From a virus, in IMG/VR virus record IMGVR_UViG_3300003155_000003: a stretch of 64,000 nt of DNA; one strand, 5' to 3'. Below are positions 1 to 62,434 of this stretch, one piece after another (position 1 is the first letter of the stretch; the number at the start of each line of letters is the position of its first letter). Position numbers and translations under genes: made by a program. The notes beneath the pieces were generated by a model. It worked only from the letters and a program-made list of their open reading frames with translations, was not told where the DNA came from and did no database searches.

Positions 1-163
1 TACCTTTACGATTAGTGTGTATTGATATTTTTAATTCTTTCCAATCTCCATTTCGTTTTTGGAATACCTTACCACTACGCCCATCTATGTATTCATCTTT
101 TCTGAATACTTGACCTTGTTTACTTACAAAATAACAAGGTAAACCAGGAATATTTTCTTTCAT
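1..163 (-). CDS. HNH/NUMOD4-type homing endonuclease, N-terminal fragment (3' end runs off the window)
   Basis: Reverse-strand ATG at 163-161 opens MKENIPGLPCYFVSKQGQVFRKDEYIDGRSGKVFQKRNGDWKEL..., open to position 1. The IPG-x-x-Y-x-VS-x-x-G-x-V opening is the same as in the HNH ORFs at 42534, 50453 and 58344. Confidence 0.5.
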   Translation of the reverse strand, partial: MKENIPGLPCYFVSKQGQVFRKDEYIDGRSGKVFQKRNGDWKELKISIHTNRKG

Positions 164-56785: not shown

Positions 56786-57650
56786 GAAAACAATATTACT
56801 GGTTGATGGAGAGAACATTCTCCATCAATCCTTTCACAAGTTCGAAAAACTTAAATCTACCGATGGTAAACCAAGTGGAGCAATTTTCGGGTTCTTCAAA
56901 TCATTACATATGTATCTTACAAGGTTTGAACCAGATGATGTAGTAATAACTTTCGACAATGGTCATTCACCGGTAAGAGATAAATTACTTCCCAATTATA
57001 AGGGACACAGAAAAAATATATCCGTAGATTATGAATCATTGCAAAATCAAAAGGCAATAATTATGAAGATATTGGGTATGCTAAGAATTCCTTATATATT
57101 CGATAAAAGGAATAAAACCAAATATGAAGGTGATGATTTCTTAGCATACCTTGTTATTAATACTTATCGGGCAGAAAAGGTAATATTGGTATCATCAGAT
57201 AAGGATTTTAACCAACTCTTAAACAAGAACGTTAGGATACTGAATCCTCGGAAAGATGAAACAATCCGAGTAGATAACTGCAAAGAATTATTCGGTTATC
57301 ATTCACATGAAACTGTACAGTATCTTGCAATGGTAGGTGATACTTCGGACGATATACCTGGGTTTAATGGTATAGGTCCAGTAAAAGCAAGGAAGATATT
57401 AGATGAGTATGGTACTATATATAAGTTCTTAGAAGCTAAACCCAATAAAGAATACTCAGAAGCTTGGGAAAGGAATCGTAAACTTATTGACTTATTCTGG
57501 TTTGTAGGTAATGTACCTTTGGATTCATTGCCCATCAAGAAGAAAAAGGTATTCAAGTATGAGAAATTCAAAGAACTATGTATCGAGTACTCATTAGCAT
57601 CTTTTTTAACAAATGAATTTATAAAACCTTTTAAAAAGTTACAAGAATGA
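56778..57650 (+). CDS. 5'-3' exonuclease / flap endonuclease (T4 RNase H-like); start moved to ATG 56778
   Basis: TILLVDGENILHQSFH (PIN-like N-terminal domain), YEGDDFLAY, VSSDKDFNQL and H3TH GDTSDDIPGFNGIGPVKARKIL. Confidence 0.8.
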   Translation: MSKKTILLVDGENILHQSFHKFEKLKSTDGKPSGAIFGFFKSLHMYLTRFEPDDVVITFDNGHSPVRDKLLPNYKGHRKNISVDYESLQNQKAIIMKILGMLRIPYIFDKRNKTKYEGDDFLAYLVINTYRAEKVILVSSDKDFNQLLNKNVRILNPRKDETIRVDNCKELFGYHSHETVQYLAMVGDTSDDIPGFNGIGPVKARKILDEYGTIYKFLEAKPNKEYSEAWERNRKLIDLFWFVGNVPLDSLPIKKKKVFKYEKFKELCIEYSLASFLTNEFIKPFKKLQE

Positions 57651-58351
57651 AGAACGTAAAGATAATGTATGCAGGTCCAAGTGGAGTTGGAAAGACTACA
57701 CTTGCAGAGTTTACTCCTAAGTTGTATCATTATGGTGTATGTGAAGCTCAACCTATGAGATTCATTTCTGGTAGTGTATCCGAATTGATACCTAAAACCA
57801 AAGATATGACCCATAAGGAGATGTTGGAAAGGAATCCAAAGGATTTACTTCTTGAAGATTATCAGATTCTAAACCTTCGGAATAAGTTATTCAAAGATGA
57901 AGAGGATTTTGTAACAGATAGAAGCTATCTTGATTCGGCAGCTTACTTTTATTACAAACAATCCCAGAATATCCCAAAATGTGAAATGGAACACTTCTTC
58001 GAGATGTGCAAAATGTTACTCAATCAACAATGTACTCATCTAATCATCTTAGACTTCACTACTGCAATGATTAAAGAATGGGTAACAGAGGGTAATAATA
58101 AAAGGATTGAGAACAATTACTTTCAATTCTTGATATCTTCAATCATGGATAATATGCTGAATATTTGGGGATTCATTCCGGTAGAGGAAATTAACGTACT
58201 TTACAGAGGTTGGTTCAAAAGACAACCTCTTGAGTATGGTGCTACTAAAGGTACTATCAAATCTTGTTATGGAGAAACAAAAGTTATTCAGATACGAGAG
58301 GCTAATATAGATATCCGAAAAGAAATTATTCAAAGTTTTATCAATGAGTAA
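57647..58351 (+). CDS. P-loop deoxynucleoside/deoxynucleotide kinase-like protein
   Basis: Walker A MYAGPSGVGKTTLAE and a dNK-like DRSYLDSAAYFYY. The ORF is 234 aa. Confidence 0.5.
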   Translation: MKNVKIMYAGPSGVGKTTLAEFTPKLYHYGVCEAQPMRFISGSVSELIPKTKDMTHKEMLERNPKDLLLEDYQILNLRNKLFKDEEDFVTDRSYLDSAAYFYYKQSQNIPKCEMEHFFEMCKMLLNQQCTHLIILDFTTAMIKEWVTEGNNKRIENNYFQFLISSIMDNMLNIWGFIPVEEINVLYRGWFKRQPLEYGATKGTIKSCYGETKVIQIREANIDIRKEIIQSFINE

Positions 58352-58721
58352 AGAAGTAGTATTTATAGATAATATAAAGGGATATCCCGGGTATCATATT
58401 ACCCGGGATGGTTTATTGTATAGTAGGTACGATAATAAGGGTAGGCTTACTTCTAATACTTGGAAAATTCGTAAGCCTACGATATCTACTAATGGGTATG
58501 TAAAATATGGATTTTGTTTAAGGTTTAGAAAAATAAAAACCCAACTCTATGCCCATAGATTAGTAGCAGAAGCCTATATACCTAACCCCAATAATTTACC
58601 TGTAGTAATGCACCTGGACGATAATCCTAAGAATAATTCTGTAGAGAATCTTAAATGGGGAACTACTTTGGATAATATAAGGGATTGTATTAAGAAGGGT
58701 AGAAAGGTAGTAAGGAAGAAA
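58344..58721 (+). mobile_element. HNH homing-endonuclease module (N-terminal domain of the fusion ORF)
   Basis: It is a paralogue of the free-standing HNH ORFs at 42534 and 50453. It ends with ...NIRDCIKKGRKVVRKK and has no stop codon before the SbcD motif I. Confidence 0.7.
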
Positions 58722-59678
58722 ATAATATCCTATGTTATCTCGGATTTACATATTGGAGAGTATGGTAAATTTACTAGTAGAACTGAAACAGCTTTCCGAG
58801 TGTTAGTAAAGTTATCAAAACTCTGTGTAAAGAATGGAGTTCCCTTATTACACTGTGGAGATTTATTTCATAGTTCTGATAAGATATCTCCGGATTTATT
58901 ATGTAGGGTTATGGAAGTATTTAACAACTTATCTAAAAAAGACTTTATAATACTAACCATTTCAGGTAATCATGGTAGCCCGGTTACTCATAGAATAGGA
59001 GATAGAGAATTTATATCCTATGATAAAGCTATTGTTAAAGCTTTCCCTAACCTTTTCTATTCATTAGATTATGAACACTTTAGGCTAAATTATCATAAAC
59101 ATGTAGTTTATGGGATACCGTATATAGATAATAACCTCGGTTTATCGGAGTACATAAAGGGTATTAAACTTAATCCTAAAAAGAAAAATATTCTTTTATT
59201 ACATACTGATTATCCGGGAGCAAAAGATACCGATGGTAGAGAAATTGGTTCTGTAGAGAATCTTAATGTAAATACCCTAAATAAATTTGATTTGGTGTTA
59301 TGTGGACATATACATAAACCACAAAGATTATCAAAGAAGGTATATATGATAGGAGCCCCTTATCAACAAAGGAGAACTGATAAAGATTGTGATTTGGGAT
59401 ATTGGGAGTTATATTCGGATTTATCTATGAAGTTTATACCCTTGAAGGGTTTTCCAAAATTCATTGATGTAGAATCTGAAGATGAAATTAAGGATGATGG
59501 AAATTATTATACCGTTTTACCTAAGAAAACTAGTAACTTAGTAAATACTAACCATAAAATTACTAAGCAACTTTCTAAGAAAGCTCTAGCAAGGAAGTAT
59601 CTTAAGGAAAAGGGTATAACTGAGCAAGATAAGAAAGAACTACTGATTGACATACTTAAAAAAGCTGAATCATGTTAA
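58344..59678 (+). CDS. sbcD: HNH homing endonuclease fused in frame to SbcD/Mre11-type nuclease (T4 gp47 analogue)
   Basis: Residues 1 to about 120 are the HNH part: IKGYPGYHITRDGLLYS, HRLVAEAYIPNPNN and MHLDDNPKNNSVENLKWGTTLDN. From about residue 127 the sequence is a calcineurin-like phosphoesterase, with motifs VISDLHIGEYG, HCGDLFH, SGNHG, LLLHTDYPG and CGHIHKPQ. Confidence 0.75.
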   Translation: MSKEVVFIDNIKGYPGYHITRDGLLYSRYDNKGRLTSNTWKIRKPTISTNGYVKYGFCLRFRKIKTQLYAHRLVAEAYIPNPNNLPVVMHLDDNPKNNSVENLKWGTTLDNIRDCIKKGRKVVRKKIISYVISDLHIGEYGKFTSRTETAFRVLVKLSKLCVKNGVPLLHCGDLFHSSDKISPDLLCRVMEVFNNLSKKDFIILTISGNHGSPVTHRIGDREFISYDKAIVKAFPNLFYSLDYEHFRLNYHKHVVYGIPYIDNNLGLSEYIKGIKLNPKKKNILLLHTDYPGAKDTDGREIGSVENLNVNTLNKFDLVLCGHIHKPQRLSKKVYMIGAPYQQRRTDKDCDLGYWELYSDLSMKFIPLKGFPKFIDVESEDEIKDDGNYYTVLPKKTSNLVNTNHKITKQLSKKALARKYLKEKGITEQDKKELLIDILKKAESC

Positions 59679-62434
59679 CATTTACAACAATGAACGTAGT
59701 AGGATTCTGTTCAATAGAAAACCTACATATACCTTTAAACCCGAGTTGTACCATACTTATCAAGGCACCTAATGGGAAAGGTAAAGCACAACCTTTAGAA
59801 GAACCCGTTTTAACCGCTAATGGTTGGAAAAAGATGGGGGAATTAACTCTTAATGATAAAGTAATTAACCCAGTTACAGGTAAACCTATCAAGCTATTGG
59901 GTATTTATGATAGAGGTCTATTAGATACTTACAAAATAACCTTTTCTGATGGCTCATGTACTGAATGTGCTGGAGACCATTTATGGTCAGTATTCAAATC
60001 TGGTAAAGCTAAAGACAGACTAAGAACCTTAGATACCGAGACTTTACTAAAGGATTATAAGGTTGAGAATAAAACTGCTCCTGGTACTTTCAAGTATAGA
60101 TACTCAACTCCATTAACCGTACCAATTGATGGTAATTATACTAAATTACCAATACACCCCTACGTATTAGGGTTTATATTAGGCGATGGTTGTATTTCCG
60201 GTAATAGGCCTACAGTTAGAGTATCTACCAATAGAGAGGATTGGCCAGAGATAGTTGATAGATTAAGGTCATATTTGCCAGACCCAAACCTGGTTCATGA
60301 AGGTACAGATGTAAGAGGGGCTAAACACTTTAGGATTCATGGTTTAGGTAAAGAACTTAAGGATTTAGGATTAATTGGTTGTAAGTCTAAAGATAAGTTT
60401 ATACCAGAGTTATATTTGAAATCATCAATCGAGAATCGTAGATTATTATTAGCTGGTTTATTAGATACTGATGGATGTGTTGGTTCCAAAAAGAAAATCT
60501 CAAAGGTTTCTACGTATTCATCTAAGAGTGAGCACTTAAGAGATGGTATTAGCTATTTGGTAAGATCCCTTGGAGGCCTATCTACTAAAAATGAAAGTAC
60601 CCGGTTTAAGTATGGTAGGTATACTACTTCATATGTGTGTTCAATACGACTAACCTTTAACCCTTTTCTAAGGAAATATAAAACTAAATCCTATGGTGAG
60701 TTTACCAGGAGAAATAGAATGGTAAATACCATAAGAAATATTGAATATATAGGGAAAAAGGTATGTAGGTGCATTAAAGTAGATTCTTCAGAAGGCCTAT
60801 ATATTACCAGAGATTTTATAGTTACCCATAATTCAACTATCTTATCGGCATTGGTATGGGCAATATATGGGAAAAACCTAAAAGGTGTATCCGAAGTTAC
60901 TACCTGGGAAAAGATAAGACCTAAAGATTACCAGGGAGTAATGGTAGAGGTATTCTTTCAAAAGGGGGAACATATTTATAAAATTATCAGATGTCAGAAA
61001 TGTAATATAGTTCTTGAGGATGGAGCTAAAGGTAAAGATAGGCTTATCCTTATGAAAGATAATGAGGTAGTGAATATAAAAGGTAAGAATAAACTCCAGG
61101 ATGCTATTAATGCAGAACTTGGATTATCTTACACTTTATTCATGAACTCGATAATGTTTGGTCAAGGGATTAAGAGGTTAATACAAGAATCAAATGCCGA
61201 CAAGAAAAGGATATTTGAGGAAGTATTTGACCTTGAGTTCTTGAATATAGCTAAAGGAATAGCTATGCAGGATAAAAATAACCTGTTAGCTCAAGCAAAC
61301 GAGGCAGAACATCAATCCGAGTTACTTAAAAGGGAATTGGAAGCTAGTAAAGAGGCTTACTTTGATTTACGTGACAGGGAGAAAGGTTTTAAAGAGAAAA
61401 TCAAATCGGAACGTAGAGAGTTAAAGAAAGACAGGGAAAAGCTAACTAAGTTACTGATTGAAAAACAAAAGGCACTTAAGGATGAAGTAGAAAAAAGTCT
61501 TCAGGTAAAGATTAAAAAACATAGTACCTATGTAGATACTCTTAAGTCAAAGCTTAGGGATAATAGAATGGTTGCAGAAGGGGTTTCTTTACCAGATTTT
61601 GTAAAGAAACTTAAGATACAGTTAGATAAAGGCCACTACAAACGTGCAAAGGCGAGCGTAGATATTATTTACAATGCCCTGATTAATTCTGATAAGTTAC
61701 GAGAAGAGTATGAGGATGCTCTAGAAAGGTTAGGTGAGTTGAGGACTACAAATGAGAAGTATAAGAGACTTCAAAAAGACTGTGAAGACATTGCTTCAGA
61801 TATTGCATCTATTGACGAGGATTTGGAAAAGCTCAAACGAGAGAAGCTTAAGGTTATGTCTCCTAAGTATAAAGAGAAACTTAAGGAAATTAGAAAGAAT
61901 CTTCGTAAGGTAGATGAGGATTACCATAATAAGGAGTTAGAATTAAAAAACTACGATTGGTTACTTAATGACCCACTTGGTAATAATGGAATCAAGGCTT
62001 ATCTGTTTGATTCATCTCTGGGTATGTTAAATAGAACACTTGATAAATATTCTCAAGTATTGGGATTCAGGATTGAATTTGGTATAGATTTGGGTACTAT
62101 TAGAAAAGACTTTTATACTTTAATTGAAAGGGATGGGCAAATTATTGATTATGATGAACTATCGGGAGGAGAACGACAACTTTGTAATGTAGCAATGGCT
62201 TTTGCTATGAACGAATCTCTAACTGCTTCCAAAGGGATTAATCTAGCCTTCTTAGATGAAGTATTTGAATCTTTAAGCTCAGATAATGTAGAGGTGGTTA
62301 CATCCTTAATCAGGCATACTTTTGCAAATAAGACCCTATTTCTAATTACCCATTTAGATTCACTTCCATTATCTAATACTAAAATCCTGCAAGTTGAAAA
62401 GGTGAATGGCCTGAGTAGGTACCAACTACTATAA
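59672..62434 (+). CDS. sbcC: Rad50/SbcC-type ATPase (T4 gp46 analogue) interrupted by an intein
   Basis: The Walker A motif is split (APNGKGK / STILSA). Other motifs are Q-loop IMFGQG, a long coiled coil, signature LSGGERQL, Walker B LAFLDEVFESL and H-loop LFLITHLD. Confidence 0.85.
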   Translation: MLTFTTMNVVGFCSIENLHIPLNPSCTILIKAPNGKGKAQPLEEPVLTANGWKKMGELTLNDKVINPVTGKPIKLLGIYDRGLLDTYKITFSDGSCTECAGDHLWSVFKSGKAKDRLRTLDTETLLKDYKVENKTAPGTFKYRYSTPLTVPIDGNYTKLPIHPYVLGFILGDGCISGNRPTVRVSTNREDWPEIVDRLRSYLPDPNLVHEGTDVRGAKHFRIHGLGKELKDLGLIGCKSKDKFIPELYLKSSIENRRLLLAGLLDTDGCVGSKKKISKVSTYSSKSEHLRDGISYLVRSLGGLSTKNESTRFKYGRYTTSYVCSIRLTFNPFLRKYKTKSYGEFTRRNRMVNTIRNIEYIGKKVCRCIKVDSSEGLYITRDFIVTHNSTILSALVWAIYGKNLKGVSEVTTWEKIRPKDYQGVMVEVFFQKGEHIYKIIRCQKCNIVLEDGAKGKDRLILMKDNEVVNIKGKNKLQDAINAELGLSYTLFMNSIMFGQGIKRLIQESNADKKRIFEEVFDLEFLNIAKGIAMQDKNNLLAQANEAEHQSELLKRELEASKEAYFDLRDREKGFKEKIKSERRELKKDREKLTKLLIEKQKALKDEVEKSLQVKIKKHSTYVDTLKSKLRDNRMVAEGVSLPDFVKKLKIQLDKGHYKRAKASVDIIYNALINSDKLREEYEDALERLGELRTTNEKYKRLQKDCEDIASDIASIDEDLEKLKREKLKVMSPKYKEKLKEIRKNLRKVDEDYHNKELELKNYDWLLNDPLGNNGIKAYLFDSSLGMLNRTLDKYSQVLGFRIEFGIDLGTIRKDFYTLIERDGQIIDYDELSGGERQLCNVAMAFAMNESLTASKGINLAFLDEVFESLSSDNVEVVTSLIRHTFANKTLFLITHLDSLPLSNTKILQVEKVNGLSRYQLL
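59786..60832 (+). mobile_element. intein (349 aa, aa 39-387) with LAGLIDADG homing endonuclease; class-3-like W-C-T signature
   Basis: It starts AQPLEEPVLTANGWKKMGEL. Block B is AGDHLW, the LAGLIDADG motifs are LGFILGDGCISG and LLAGLLDTDGCVG, the block F Cys lies in VCRCIKV, and it ends FIVTHN followed by a Ser at +1. Confidence 0.8.

Follow-up and report, generated by a model that had tools for sequence, protein, structure and literature searches.

A very probable full-length class 3 intein, with signs of recent homing, in the P-loop of a phage Rad50/SbcC-like ATPase

The stretch of virus DNA analyzed here comprises 64,000 nucleotides (IMG/VR record IMGVR_UViG_3300003155_000003; the whole stretch is called the window below) and contains a 920-residue open reading frame (ORF) for a Rad50/SbcC (T4 gp46-type) ATPase, the P-loop of which is interrupted. 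We conclude that nucleotides 59786-60832 very probably encode a full-length class 3 intein, placed between the Lys and Ser of the Walker A motif, and that this intein has probably been homing recently. The insert corresponds exactly to residues 39-387 of the ORF, is in frame and is 1047 bp long. The left junction reads ...ILIKAPNGKGK/AQPLEEPVLTANGWKKMGEL... and the right junction RDFIVTHN/STILSALVWAIYGKNL, where a slash marks the junction here and below. A preliminary description of this DNA, made from the sequence, had placed a 349-residue insert at this position, and its coordinates are exact to the base; the strings that it quoted (the junctions, GDHLW, LGFILGDGCISG, LLAGLLDTDGCVG, VCRCIKV and RDFIVTHN) were all located. 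The GC content of the intein is equal to that of the extein (34.6 and 34.4%, respectively), so composition gives no hint of foreign origin.

Orthologues lacking the insert define its boundaries. A search of 5.8 billion proteins returned more than 100 clusters of 919-921-residue alleles with the insert, together with 570-residue alleles that lack it and have exteins 92-94% identical to that of the window. These intein-less alleles read APNGKGKSTILSALVW in the alignment, i.e. ...APNGKGK-STILSALVW.... At the DNA level, where the comparison covered a single empty allele, the window is colinear on both sides with the intein-less 86.6-kb contig L002, and only the 1047-bp block is extra; in silico splicing of the window sequence yields exactly the reading frame and protein of L002. 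The segment is an in-frame insert that is missing from near-identical orthologues, and its removal restores a host motif, which is what is expected of an intein. Comparison with intein-less gp46/SbcC homologues, which the preliminary description had proposed, confirms the insertion point, and the alternative that it named, a conserved domain that is not excised, is excluded by the intein-less orthologues with their 92-94% identical exteins.

Next to these boundaries, the restored host protein is readily recognized. Removal of residues 39-387 in silico gives a 571-residue protein with the Walker A motif APNGKGKSTILSA, and this P-loop pairs with VEGPNGAGKSSLFEAISFALFG of Thermotoga Rad50 (3qf7). 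The E-value for Pfam AAA_23 improves from 4e-4 for the unspliced ORF to 7.6e-12 for the spliced form. The earlier statement that the deletion recreates a textbook Rad50/SMC Walker A motif is borne out by the product, the P-loop alignment and this gain. The spliced protein also matches SMC_N (8.6e-16), SbcC_Walker_B (4.8e-6; 27.2 bits, with a cut-off of 27) and PHROG 77 (phrog_77), 'SbcC-like subunit' (4.6e-67). It matches the solved structures of Rad50 (3qf7, 3tho) and SbcC (6s6v), and both ends align, including LSGGER and LDE. The head is of the ABC type (Walker A, Q-loop, signature, Walker B and D-loop) and is split by a long coiled coil. An Mre11/SbcD-type partner gene is present as well: the ORF at 58344..59678 matches Metallophos (9.5e-9), and the start of the precursor ORF overlaps its stop by 7 nt. 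No CxxC zinc hook was found at the apex of the coiled coil of the spliced extein; the sole CxxC motif, CQKC, lies in the N-terminal head (residues 92-95). The host protein, judged from these motifs, is best named Rad50/SbcC-like and hook-less. The gene had no match by Megablast among 50,697 phage records, so searches at the protein level were needed.

To place the insert itself, we compared it with profiles and structures of known inteins. The stock Pfam and NCBIfam matches within it are LAGLIDADG_3 (1.5e-11) and Hom_end (5.8e-6), plus fragments of intein-containing equivalogs. A single-sequence search finds the DnaB inteins 6rix, 6bs8 and 6riy with E-values of 2.5e-5 to 8e-5, covering the N-terminal blocks and, weakly, the C-terminal ...RC..V....LY......THN. 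A family profile built from a 21-sequence alignment of diverse relatives matches the same three structures at 7e-26 to 7e-24 over profile positions 1-69 and 314-351, and it matches PI-SceI at 2e-22 over positions 119-351, which comprise the endonuclease and the C-terminal Hint half. The AlphaFold2 model from this alignment has a pLDDT of 92.0 and a pTM of 0.90. In a Foldseek search of the PDB, the top whole-model match is PI-SceI (E 1.7e-16, TMq 0.70), followed by the TliVMA/PhoVMA inteins and PI-PfuI; further matches are mini-inteins, including class 3 structures (TMt 0.78-0.79), and a hedgehog Hint domain. Both halves of the profile, the predicted model and the Foldseek matches thus agree on a Hint fold with blocks A, B, F and G. 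The LAGLIDADG endonuclease previously proposed within the insert is supported by the two stock matches, the PI-SceI match and the predicted Hint plus LAGLIDADG fold; it is of the double-motif type, and both motifs keep their acidic residue (Asp134 and Asp229). The family hidden Markov model (HMM) scores the segment at E 4e-107, a match far beyond chance, with zero other matches and hence no further copy of this intein family in the window.

The class assignment follows from a small set of residues. Class 3 inteins are defined by a non-nucleophilic residue 1 that co-varies with Trp at B:12, Cys at F:4 and Thr at G:5 (the W-C-T triplet), and their +1 residue is usually Ser or Thr, rarely Cys (PMC2807308). 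The window intein has no Cys, Ser or Thr at position 1, carries W-C-T at exactly these positions and ends in ...VTHN/S, so that the C-terminal His-Asn is followed by a nucleophilic Ser+1, which is the first C-extein residue and also the P-loop Ser. Its Ala1, His65, Trp67, Cys329, Thr347, His348, Asn349 and Ser+1 align with their equivalents in the solved class 3 inteins MchDnaB1 and MsmDnaB1. The structures 6rix, 6riy and 6bs8 belong to class 3 inteins, and the active site of MchDnaB1 is a Cys124-His65-Thr143 triad with Trp67 (PMC7664689). We counted residues in 167 family copies (166 for some positions) from the 150 best representative clusters (Table 1). Position 1 is Ala in 103/167 copies and otherwise mostly Leu, Pro or Gly. 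The +1 residue is Thr in 120, Ser in 39 and Cys in 6 copies, i.e. Thr or Ser in 159/167 and any of the three in 165/167. The class 3 signature with Ala1, W-C-T, His-Asn and Ser+1 claimed in the preliminary description therefore stands, with all residues present, conserved in the family and aligned to solved class 3 inteins. One point is refined: a Cys does occupy F:4 within VCRCIKV, and it is the second of the two, Cys329 (166/167), not Cys327 (nt 60764..60766), which is variable (Cys in 42/167). A further cysteine, Cys61, lies four residues before the block B His (nt span 59951..59968 together with Cys58, block B) and is present in 122/167 family members.

Table 1. Features of the intein, its host gene and neighboring genes. 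Coordinates refer to the window unless a contig is named; counts refer to family copies.
Feature	Coordinates	Strand	Basis
Precursor ORF, 920 residues, Rad50/SbcC/gp46-like ATPase interrupted by the intein	59672..62434	+	phrog_77, Pfam and PDB matches
N-extein, 38 residues, ending in Walker A APNGKGK	59672..59785	+	Intein-less alleles, 3qf7 alignment
Intein, 349 residues (Ala1 to Asn349), Hint splicing domain split by a double-motif LAGLIDADG homing endonuclease	59786..60832	+	Profile, fold, intein-less alleles
Block A (AQPLEEPVLTANG); position 1 Ala, not a nucleophile	59786..59824	+	Aligned to A1 of MchDnaB1; family counts
Block B (DGSCTECAGDHLWSVF); His65 (B:10, nt 59978-59980), Trp67 (B:12, nt 59984-59986)	59948..59995	+	His 167/167, Trp 163/167
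LAGLIDADG motif 1 (YVLGFILGDGCI; YVLGFILGDG), acidic Asp134	60161..60196	+	LAGLIDADG_3; Asp 143/167
LAGLIDADG motif 2 (RLLLAGLLDTDGCV; LLAGLLDTDG), acidic Asp229	60440..60481	+	Asp 164/167; PI-SceI profile match
Block F (IGKKVCRCIKVDSSEGLYITRDFI); Cys329 (F:4, nt 60770-60772), predicted initiating nucleophile	60749..60820	+	Cys 166/167; Mch/Msm DnaB1 alignment
Block G (DFIVTHN) and Ser+1; Thr347 (G:5), His348, Asn349	60812..60835	+	Thr 164/167, His 160/167, Asn 166/167
C-extein, 533 residues and stop (STILSALVWAIYGK...), coiled coil, signature motif LSGGERQ, Walker B LAFLDEVF	60833..62434	+	Pfam and PDB matches
Mre11/SbcD/gp47-like phosphoesterase with in-frame N-terminal HNH_3 domain	58344..59678	+	Metallophos, PHROG 59
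AAA_28-like ATPase gene, intein-free in the window (AGPSGVGK/TTLAEF; AGPSGVGKTTLAEF)	57647..58351	+	Orthologue comparison
AAA_28 genes with intein in syntenic contigs	L012:6001-7710; L013:2545-4254		~88-kb phages

Ala1, the C-terminal His-Asn and Ser+1 are also the criteria by which a July 2026 preprint on viral Rad50-like ATPases with Hint and endonuclease domains (bioRxiv 10.64898/2026.07.21.739742) labels Rad50-associated viral inteins that lack a block-A nucleophile 'class 2'; it scores such inteins as class 1 or class 2 only and suggests that the endonuclease 'replaced' Mre11. On a class 2 (KlbA-like) route, Ser+1 would attack the N-terminal junction directly, with no block-F branch. We consider this route very improbable for the window intein. 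Class 2 is defined by the absence of W-C-T and by Asp at F:4 (PMC2807308), whereas here F:4 is Cys and B:12 is Trp, and Trp67, Cys329 and Thr347, all of which the window intein has, are family-invariant. Experiments place the nearest solved relatives in class 3 (PMC7664689), and the class 3 Bvi IcmO intein is incapable of class 2 splicing (PMC5222942). The reading of the preprint is inapplicable to the window, where an intact Mre11-like gene lies directly upstream and W-C-T marks class 3; other inteins with Ala1, W-C-T and an adjacent intact Mre11 would likewise be mislabeled class 2 under its scheme.

By homology with the solved class 3 inteins, splicing is expected to run through a block-F thioester branch, transfer to Ser+1 and Asn cyclization. 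In biochemical terms, class 3 splicing requires the block-F Cys as nucleophile and passes through two branched intermediates in succession (PMC2807308, PMC5222942). In the 920-residue precursor the P-loop is split, and ATP would not be bound. Cys329, activated by His65 and with Trp67 and Thr347 packed around it, would attack the Lys38-Ala1 bond and form a thioester branch on the intein. The N-extein would then pass to Ser+1 by transesterification, and cyclization of Asn349 would free the 349-residue intein. Lastly, an O-to-N shift would give the native GKGK-STIL P-loop in a 571-residue active ATPase, the presumed partner of the adjacent Mre11-like nuclease. The opposite possibility is a decayed remnant that no longer splices, so that the Rad50-like gene is a pseudogene or works with the insert as a retained domain; a precedent is the class 3-like intein pseudogene Arth_1007 of Arthrobacter (PMC3196547). 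This is the least probable of the readings that we weighed. Every catalytic position of the window intein is intact, more than 100 intein-bearing allele clusters have full-length ORFs with exteins conserved at 60-94%, and the intein-less alleles show the segment to be dispensable. Moreover, a retained insert parts the Walker A Lys from its Ser, which is incompatible with ATP binding.

To analyze the recent history of the element, we compared the intein with its flanks in other alleles. Across alleles the intein protein is 95-99.7% identical (mostly ~99%), compared with 63% to 91% for the C-extein. The intein DNA of contigs L007 and L008 is 98.9 and 98.8% identical, respectively, to that of the window (11-13 differences in 1047 nt, 8-9 of them synonymous), whereas the N-exteins are 71 and 80% identical and the C-exteins 64-73%. 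In 90-nt segments, identity of at least 0.97 gives way to 0.67-0.77 at the 5' boundary and to 0.73-0.80 at the 3' boundary. The three filled alleles share the junctions AATGGGAAAGGTAAA/ and /TCAACT, and the empty allele reads AATGGAAAAGGTAAG/TCAACC; the empty Rad50 site of L002 is GCACCAAATGGAAAAGGTAAG/TCAACCATCTTATCGGCATTG. Within 15 bp on the left side of the junction and 6 bp on its right side, three synonymous differences separate the filled alleles from the empty one, a pattern that would fit a short co-conversion tract. The components of a homing footprint are all found at this site: presence/absence polymorphism, much higher similarity of the element than of its flanks, and apparent co-conversion of neighboring markers. 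In its simplest reading the pattern indicates ongoing or very recent homing among co-infecting gut phages, driven by an endonuclease that is presumably active. The freed intein, with Asp134 and Asp229 intact, would cut empty alleles around ...AATGGAAAAGGTAAG/TCAACCATC... during co-infection, and repair templated by the intein-bearing genome would copy the intein into the cut allele.

General phage recombination and short-patch gene conversion could also leave a patchy, near-identical element, in which case the class 3 intein would no longer be actively homing. The genomes of these phages contain a complete recombination module (gp32, UvsX/RecA, a 5'-3' exonuclease and Mre11/Rad50), and dead endonucleases are frequent in inteins, for example in gp539 of Salicola phage SCTP-2. 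We regard this explanation as improbable, since both LAGLIDADG motifs and their acidic residues are intact and identity drops exactly at both intein boundaries in two independent lineages. Drops at the exact boundaries are expected from cleavage-initiated repair and not from random recombination end-points.

Several points weigh against the conclusion of a splicing and recently homing class 3 intein. First, splicing, its dependence on Cys329 and cleavage by the endonuclease are what we infer from homology. Second, grafting W-C-T into a class 1 intein is not enough to make it splice as class 3 (PMC7664689), so the triplet is diagnostic and not sufficient. Third, the co-conversion tract rests on few sequences, with one empty allele at the DNA level, and the near-identity of the intein across lineages could in principle stem from ordinary recombination of co-infecting phages. 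Finally, Pfam-A and NCBIfam scans gave no Hint or intein_Nterm/Cterm model at E <= 0.1 in the insert. Read to the letter, this is the outcome that the preliminary description had named as refuting its reading. The Hint-domain HMM check that it proposed came out divided, as stock Hint and intein models gave no match while the family profile reached solved inteins at 7e-26 and a Hint fold was predicted. The missing stock match is a sensitivity failure, because the family profile and the predicted structure show the Hint domain clearly.

The intein belongs to a large family with a preferred type of site. Among 1.84 billion representatives, HMMER matched 16,660 clusters with E <= 1e-3, 3,851 of them with E <= 1e-30. 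By tblastn, 823 phage records contain full-length relatives that are 25-35% identical, with helicases, terminases, primase/replication proteins, RNA polymerase, GyrA and others as hosts. The three family examples that were inspected all read GxGK/A...C(Q/R/K)CI...VTHN/T, and insertion after GK was found in 102/166 family copies. The step from Lys to Thr of Walker A is the 'classic' P-loop insertion (PMC5050341), and the P-loop Lys followed by Ser or Thr is a known class 3 site (PMC2807308, PMC5050341). The host domains in 61 of the nearest representatives are PhoH (17), AAA_30 (9), DnaB (8), SNF2 (7), RecA (3) and others, including RecD-like; SMC_N or AAA_23 is the host domain in none of these 61. 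When the extein was compared with 150 representative intein hosts by local phmmer, the sole match was a fragment from the same family.

A query across the right junction, made up of the last 59 intein residues and 144 C-extein residues, identified two isolated phages that carry an intein at the orthologous Rad50 site. The first is Lactobacillus phage LfeInf gp087 (KP054477; L010:3887-6880), which its depositor labeled 'endonuclease' and 'putative intein'. It reads ...LLSADNGSGK/AQPYSERVMT...DHLF...NMRCIMVD...YVVSHN/SSIYFALLYALYGK, its extein is homologous to that of the window (E 8e-12) and a CxxC hook is present. The deposited N-terminal boundary lies 31 residues downstream of the likely true start (NGSGK/AQPYSE...). 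Its triplet is F-C-S in place of W-C-T, a variant of the class 3 triplet, and it ends in Ser-His-Asn followed by Ser+1. The second is Salicola phage SCTP-2 gp539 (MF360958; L011:1460-4225), a 921-residue 'hypothetical protein' that is a gp46/Rad50 homologue adjoining a 'T4gp47 homologue'. It reads ...SNGIGK/AQPYHS...EHLW...KAACIKIN...YTITHN/TTIINGISYALYGK and contains an unannotated intein with the class 3 signature (Ala1, HLW, ACI, THN/T), degenerate LAGLIDADG motifs (ARG for GDG, DSIA for DTDG) and a CPEC hook. A Rad50-type host is uncommon but not unique for this intein family. In the literature searched, inteins and Rad50/SbcC/gp46 share almost only incidental co-mentions; the exception is the 2026 preprint, and no further paper on an intein in one of these proteins was found there. 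Mycobacteriophage Gizmo gp220 ('exonuclease') was considered as an SbcC candidate, but it is a nuclease of the Cas4/RecB type whose intein begins with Cys1, and it is irrelevant here. The novelty implied by the preliminary description, which did not recognize a class 3 intein in a phage Rad50/gp46 gene as described, does not hold: the P-loop position between Lys and Ser or Thr is the classic site, and LfeInf gp087 and SCTP-2 gp539 were already public.

The closest non-allelic relative sits in the same gene cluster. The intein of protein P0124 is 49% identical over all 349 residues (E 1e-109) and is inserted at AGPSGIGK/.../TTLAEG in an extein 54% identical (E 2e-91) to the AAA_28-like ORF of the window. 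A search with P0124 returned about 12 allelic clusters, followed by the Rad50 intein alleles at 46-50%. Contigs L012 and L013 carry, in this order, genes for gp32, RecA, a 5'-3' exonuclease, AAA_28 interrupted by the intein (569 residues), Mre11 (322 residues) and Rad50-like (570 residues) without intein. The AAA_28 P-loop site is GGTCCAAGTGGAGTTGGAAAG/ACTACACTTGCAGAGTTTACT in DNA, and the two empty sites share 20/42 nt, mostly on the GxxGxGK side. Extein switching has been proposed for actinobacteriophage class 3 inteins (10.1101/2025.01.02.630785). The AAA_28/Rad50 pair looks like a candidate for such switching, between the nucleotide-binding sites of two P-loop genes ~1.3 kb apart.

The surrounding locus, a T4-like recombination module, is colinear with its counterpart in relatives encoding Cpn10, gp32, RecA/UvsX and a 5'-3' exonuclease. 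The phages are ~86 kb in size, and the closest relatives in GenBank come from human faeces. The Mre11-like protein of the window carries an HNH_3 domain of ~115 residues (PHROG 59, 1e-31) after codon 8 (MSKEVVFI) and before phosphoesterase motif I (SDLHI), with no in-frame ATG, GTG or TTG between the domain and motif I. Orthologues in L002, L007, L008 and L012 have 319-324 residues and lack the HNH domain. The identical 444-residue HNH-Mre11 protein occurs on 30 contigs, and fusions of 435-445 residues are found down to 50% identity, so the fusion is not an assembly error. Across these fusions the HNH and Mre11 parts diverge in parallel, in contrast to the intein, and HNH-Mre11 is either a long-lived fusion protein or an old homing-endonuclease capture. 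A free-standing 186-residue HNH_3 ORF lies between the Rad50-like and PDDEXK_15 genes at L008:8790-9350 and is absent there in the window, L002 and L007. It seems that homing-endonuclease genes are gained and lost all over the Mre11-Rad50 cluster.

A regulatory role would be an addition to, or a rival of, the selfish element described above: the intein could act as a conditional (redox or metal) switch that delays the phage Mre11-Rad50 nuclease until splicing is permitted. In the class 3 Msm DnaBi1 intein, which also lies at a P-loop site between Lys and Ser, H2O2 causes reversible inhibition, in which a non-block cysteine and the catalytic Cys form a disulfide (PMC6195587), and a companion paper reports zinc inhibition (PMC7360933). 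The window intein has extra cysteines near the active site (Cys58, Cys61 and Cys327), of which Cys61 is the one widely kept among relatives. It shows no sign of regulation, though, and intein-less alleles are common and evidently viable. Oxidative gating would also have no obvious role in the probable host, an anaerobic gut bacterium, and we doubt that such a switch operates here. The intein lies in the ATP loop of the enzyme that itself resects double-strand breaks, and T4 gp46/47 is required for homing-type repair. The broader proposal, that the intein gates the onset of phage Mre11-Rad50 activity and that the AAA_28 sister documents extein switching within one cluster, is speculative, and we hold it unlikely.

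In summary, the element belongs to a large and well-characterized intein family, of which it is an ordinary member at the standard type of site, and the general understanding of inteins is unchanged by it. For annotation, the 920-residue ORF should be recorded as the precursor of a Rad50/SbcC-like ATPase plus an intein, not as a 'Rad50-endonuclease fusion' and not as class 2, the treatment given to comparable proteins in a recent large-scale survey. For intein biology it adds a full-length class 3 example with Ser+1 and an apparently intact endonuclease. It occurs in an abundant human-gut phage population (~86 kb) with filled and empty alleles, in which the intein DNA is ~99% identical and the flanks have diverged by 20-36%. 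Together with the neighboring sister intein, this population would provide a convenient natural system for studying homing, the length of co-conversion tracts and extein switching.

Finally, we compared the window intein with known systems. PI-SceI (yeast VMA1), TliVMA and PI-PfuI share the Hint domain interrupted by a double-motif LAGLIDADG endonuclease and are the best whole-model structural matches, but they are class 1 (Cys1, Asp at F:4), have an extra DNA-recognition region and are only 14-18% identical. The prototype class 3 intein in DnaB of mycobacteriophage Bethlehem and the Msm and M. chimaera DnaB-1 inteins share Ala1, HxW, the F:4 Cys, THN and Ser or Thr at +1; in MchDnaB1, His65 and Trp67 have the same numbering, and insertion is also after the P-loop Lys (N-extein ...SVGK). 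The DnaB-1 inteins (6bs8, 6rix, 6riy) differ in their DnaB helicase host and in being mini-inteins without endonuclease, with ~30% identity over the Hint halves. Mycobacteriophage TerL1-a and other 'classic' P-loop phage inteins share the site between Lys and Thr or Ser, the 340-360-residue Hint plus LAGLIDADG architecture and the phage habitat; about three quarters of them have Thr+1, whereas the window intein has Ser+1. The LfeInf and SCTP-2 inteins share the orthologous Rad50/SbcC site, Ala1 and the block F Cys. Their host proteins have an apical CxxC hook, which the window extein lacks, and their identity to the window intein is 27-28%, below that of inteins in unrelated hosts (35-49%); because of this low identity, they probably represent separate invasions or a very old divergence. 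The AAA_28 sister intein is closest, with the same length, class 3 signature, GK/T P-loop, phage family and gene cluster, and the two are mutual best non-allelic matches. It differs in its host gene, two upstream, and its genomes (~86-88 kb gut phages) have an empty Rad50 site, the reverse of the arrangement in the window.

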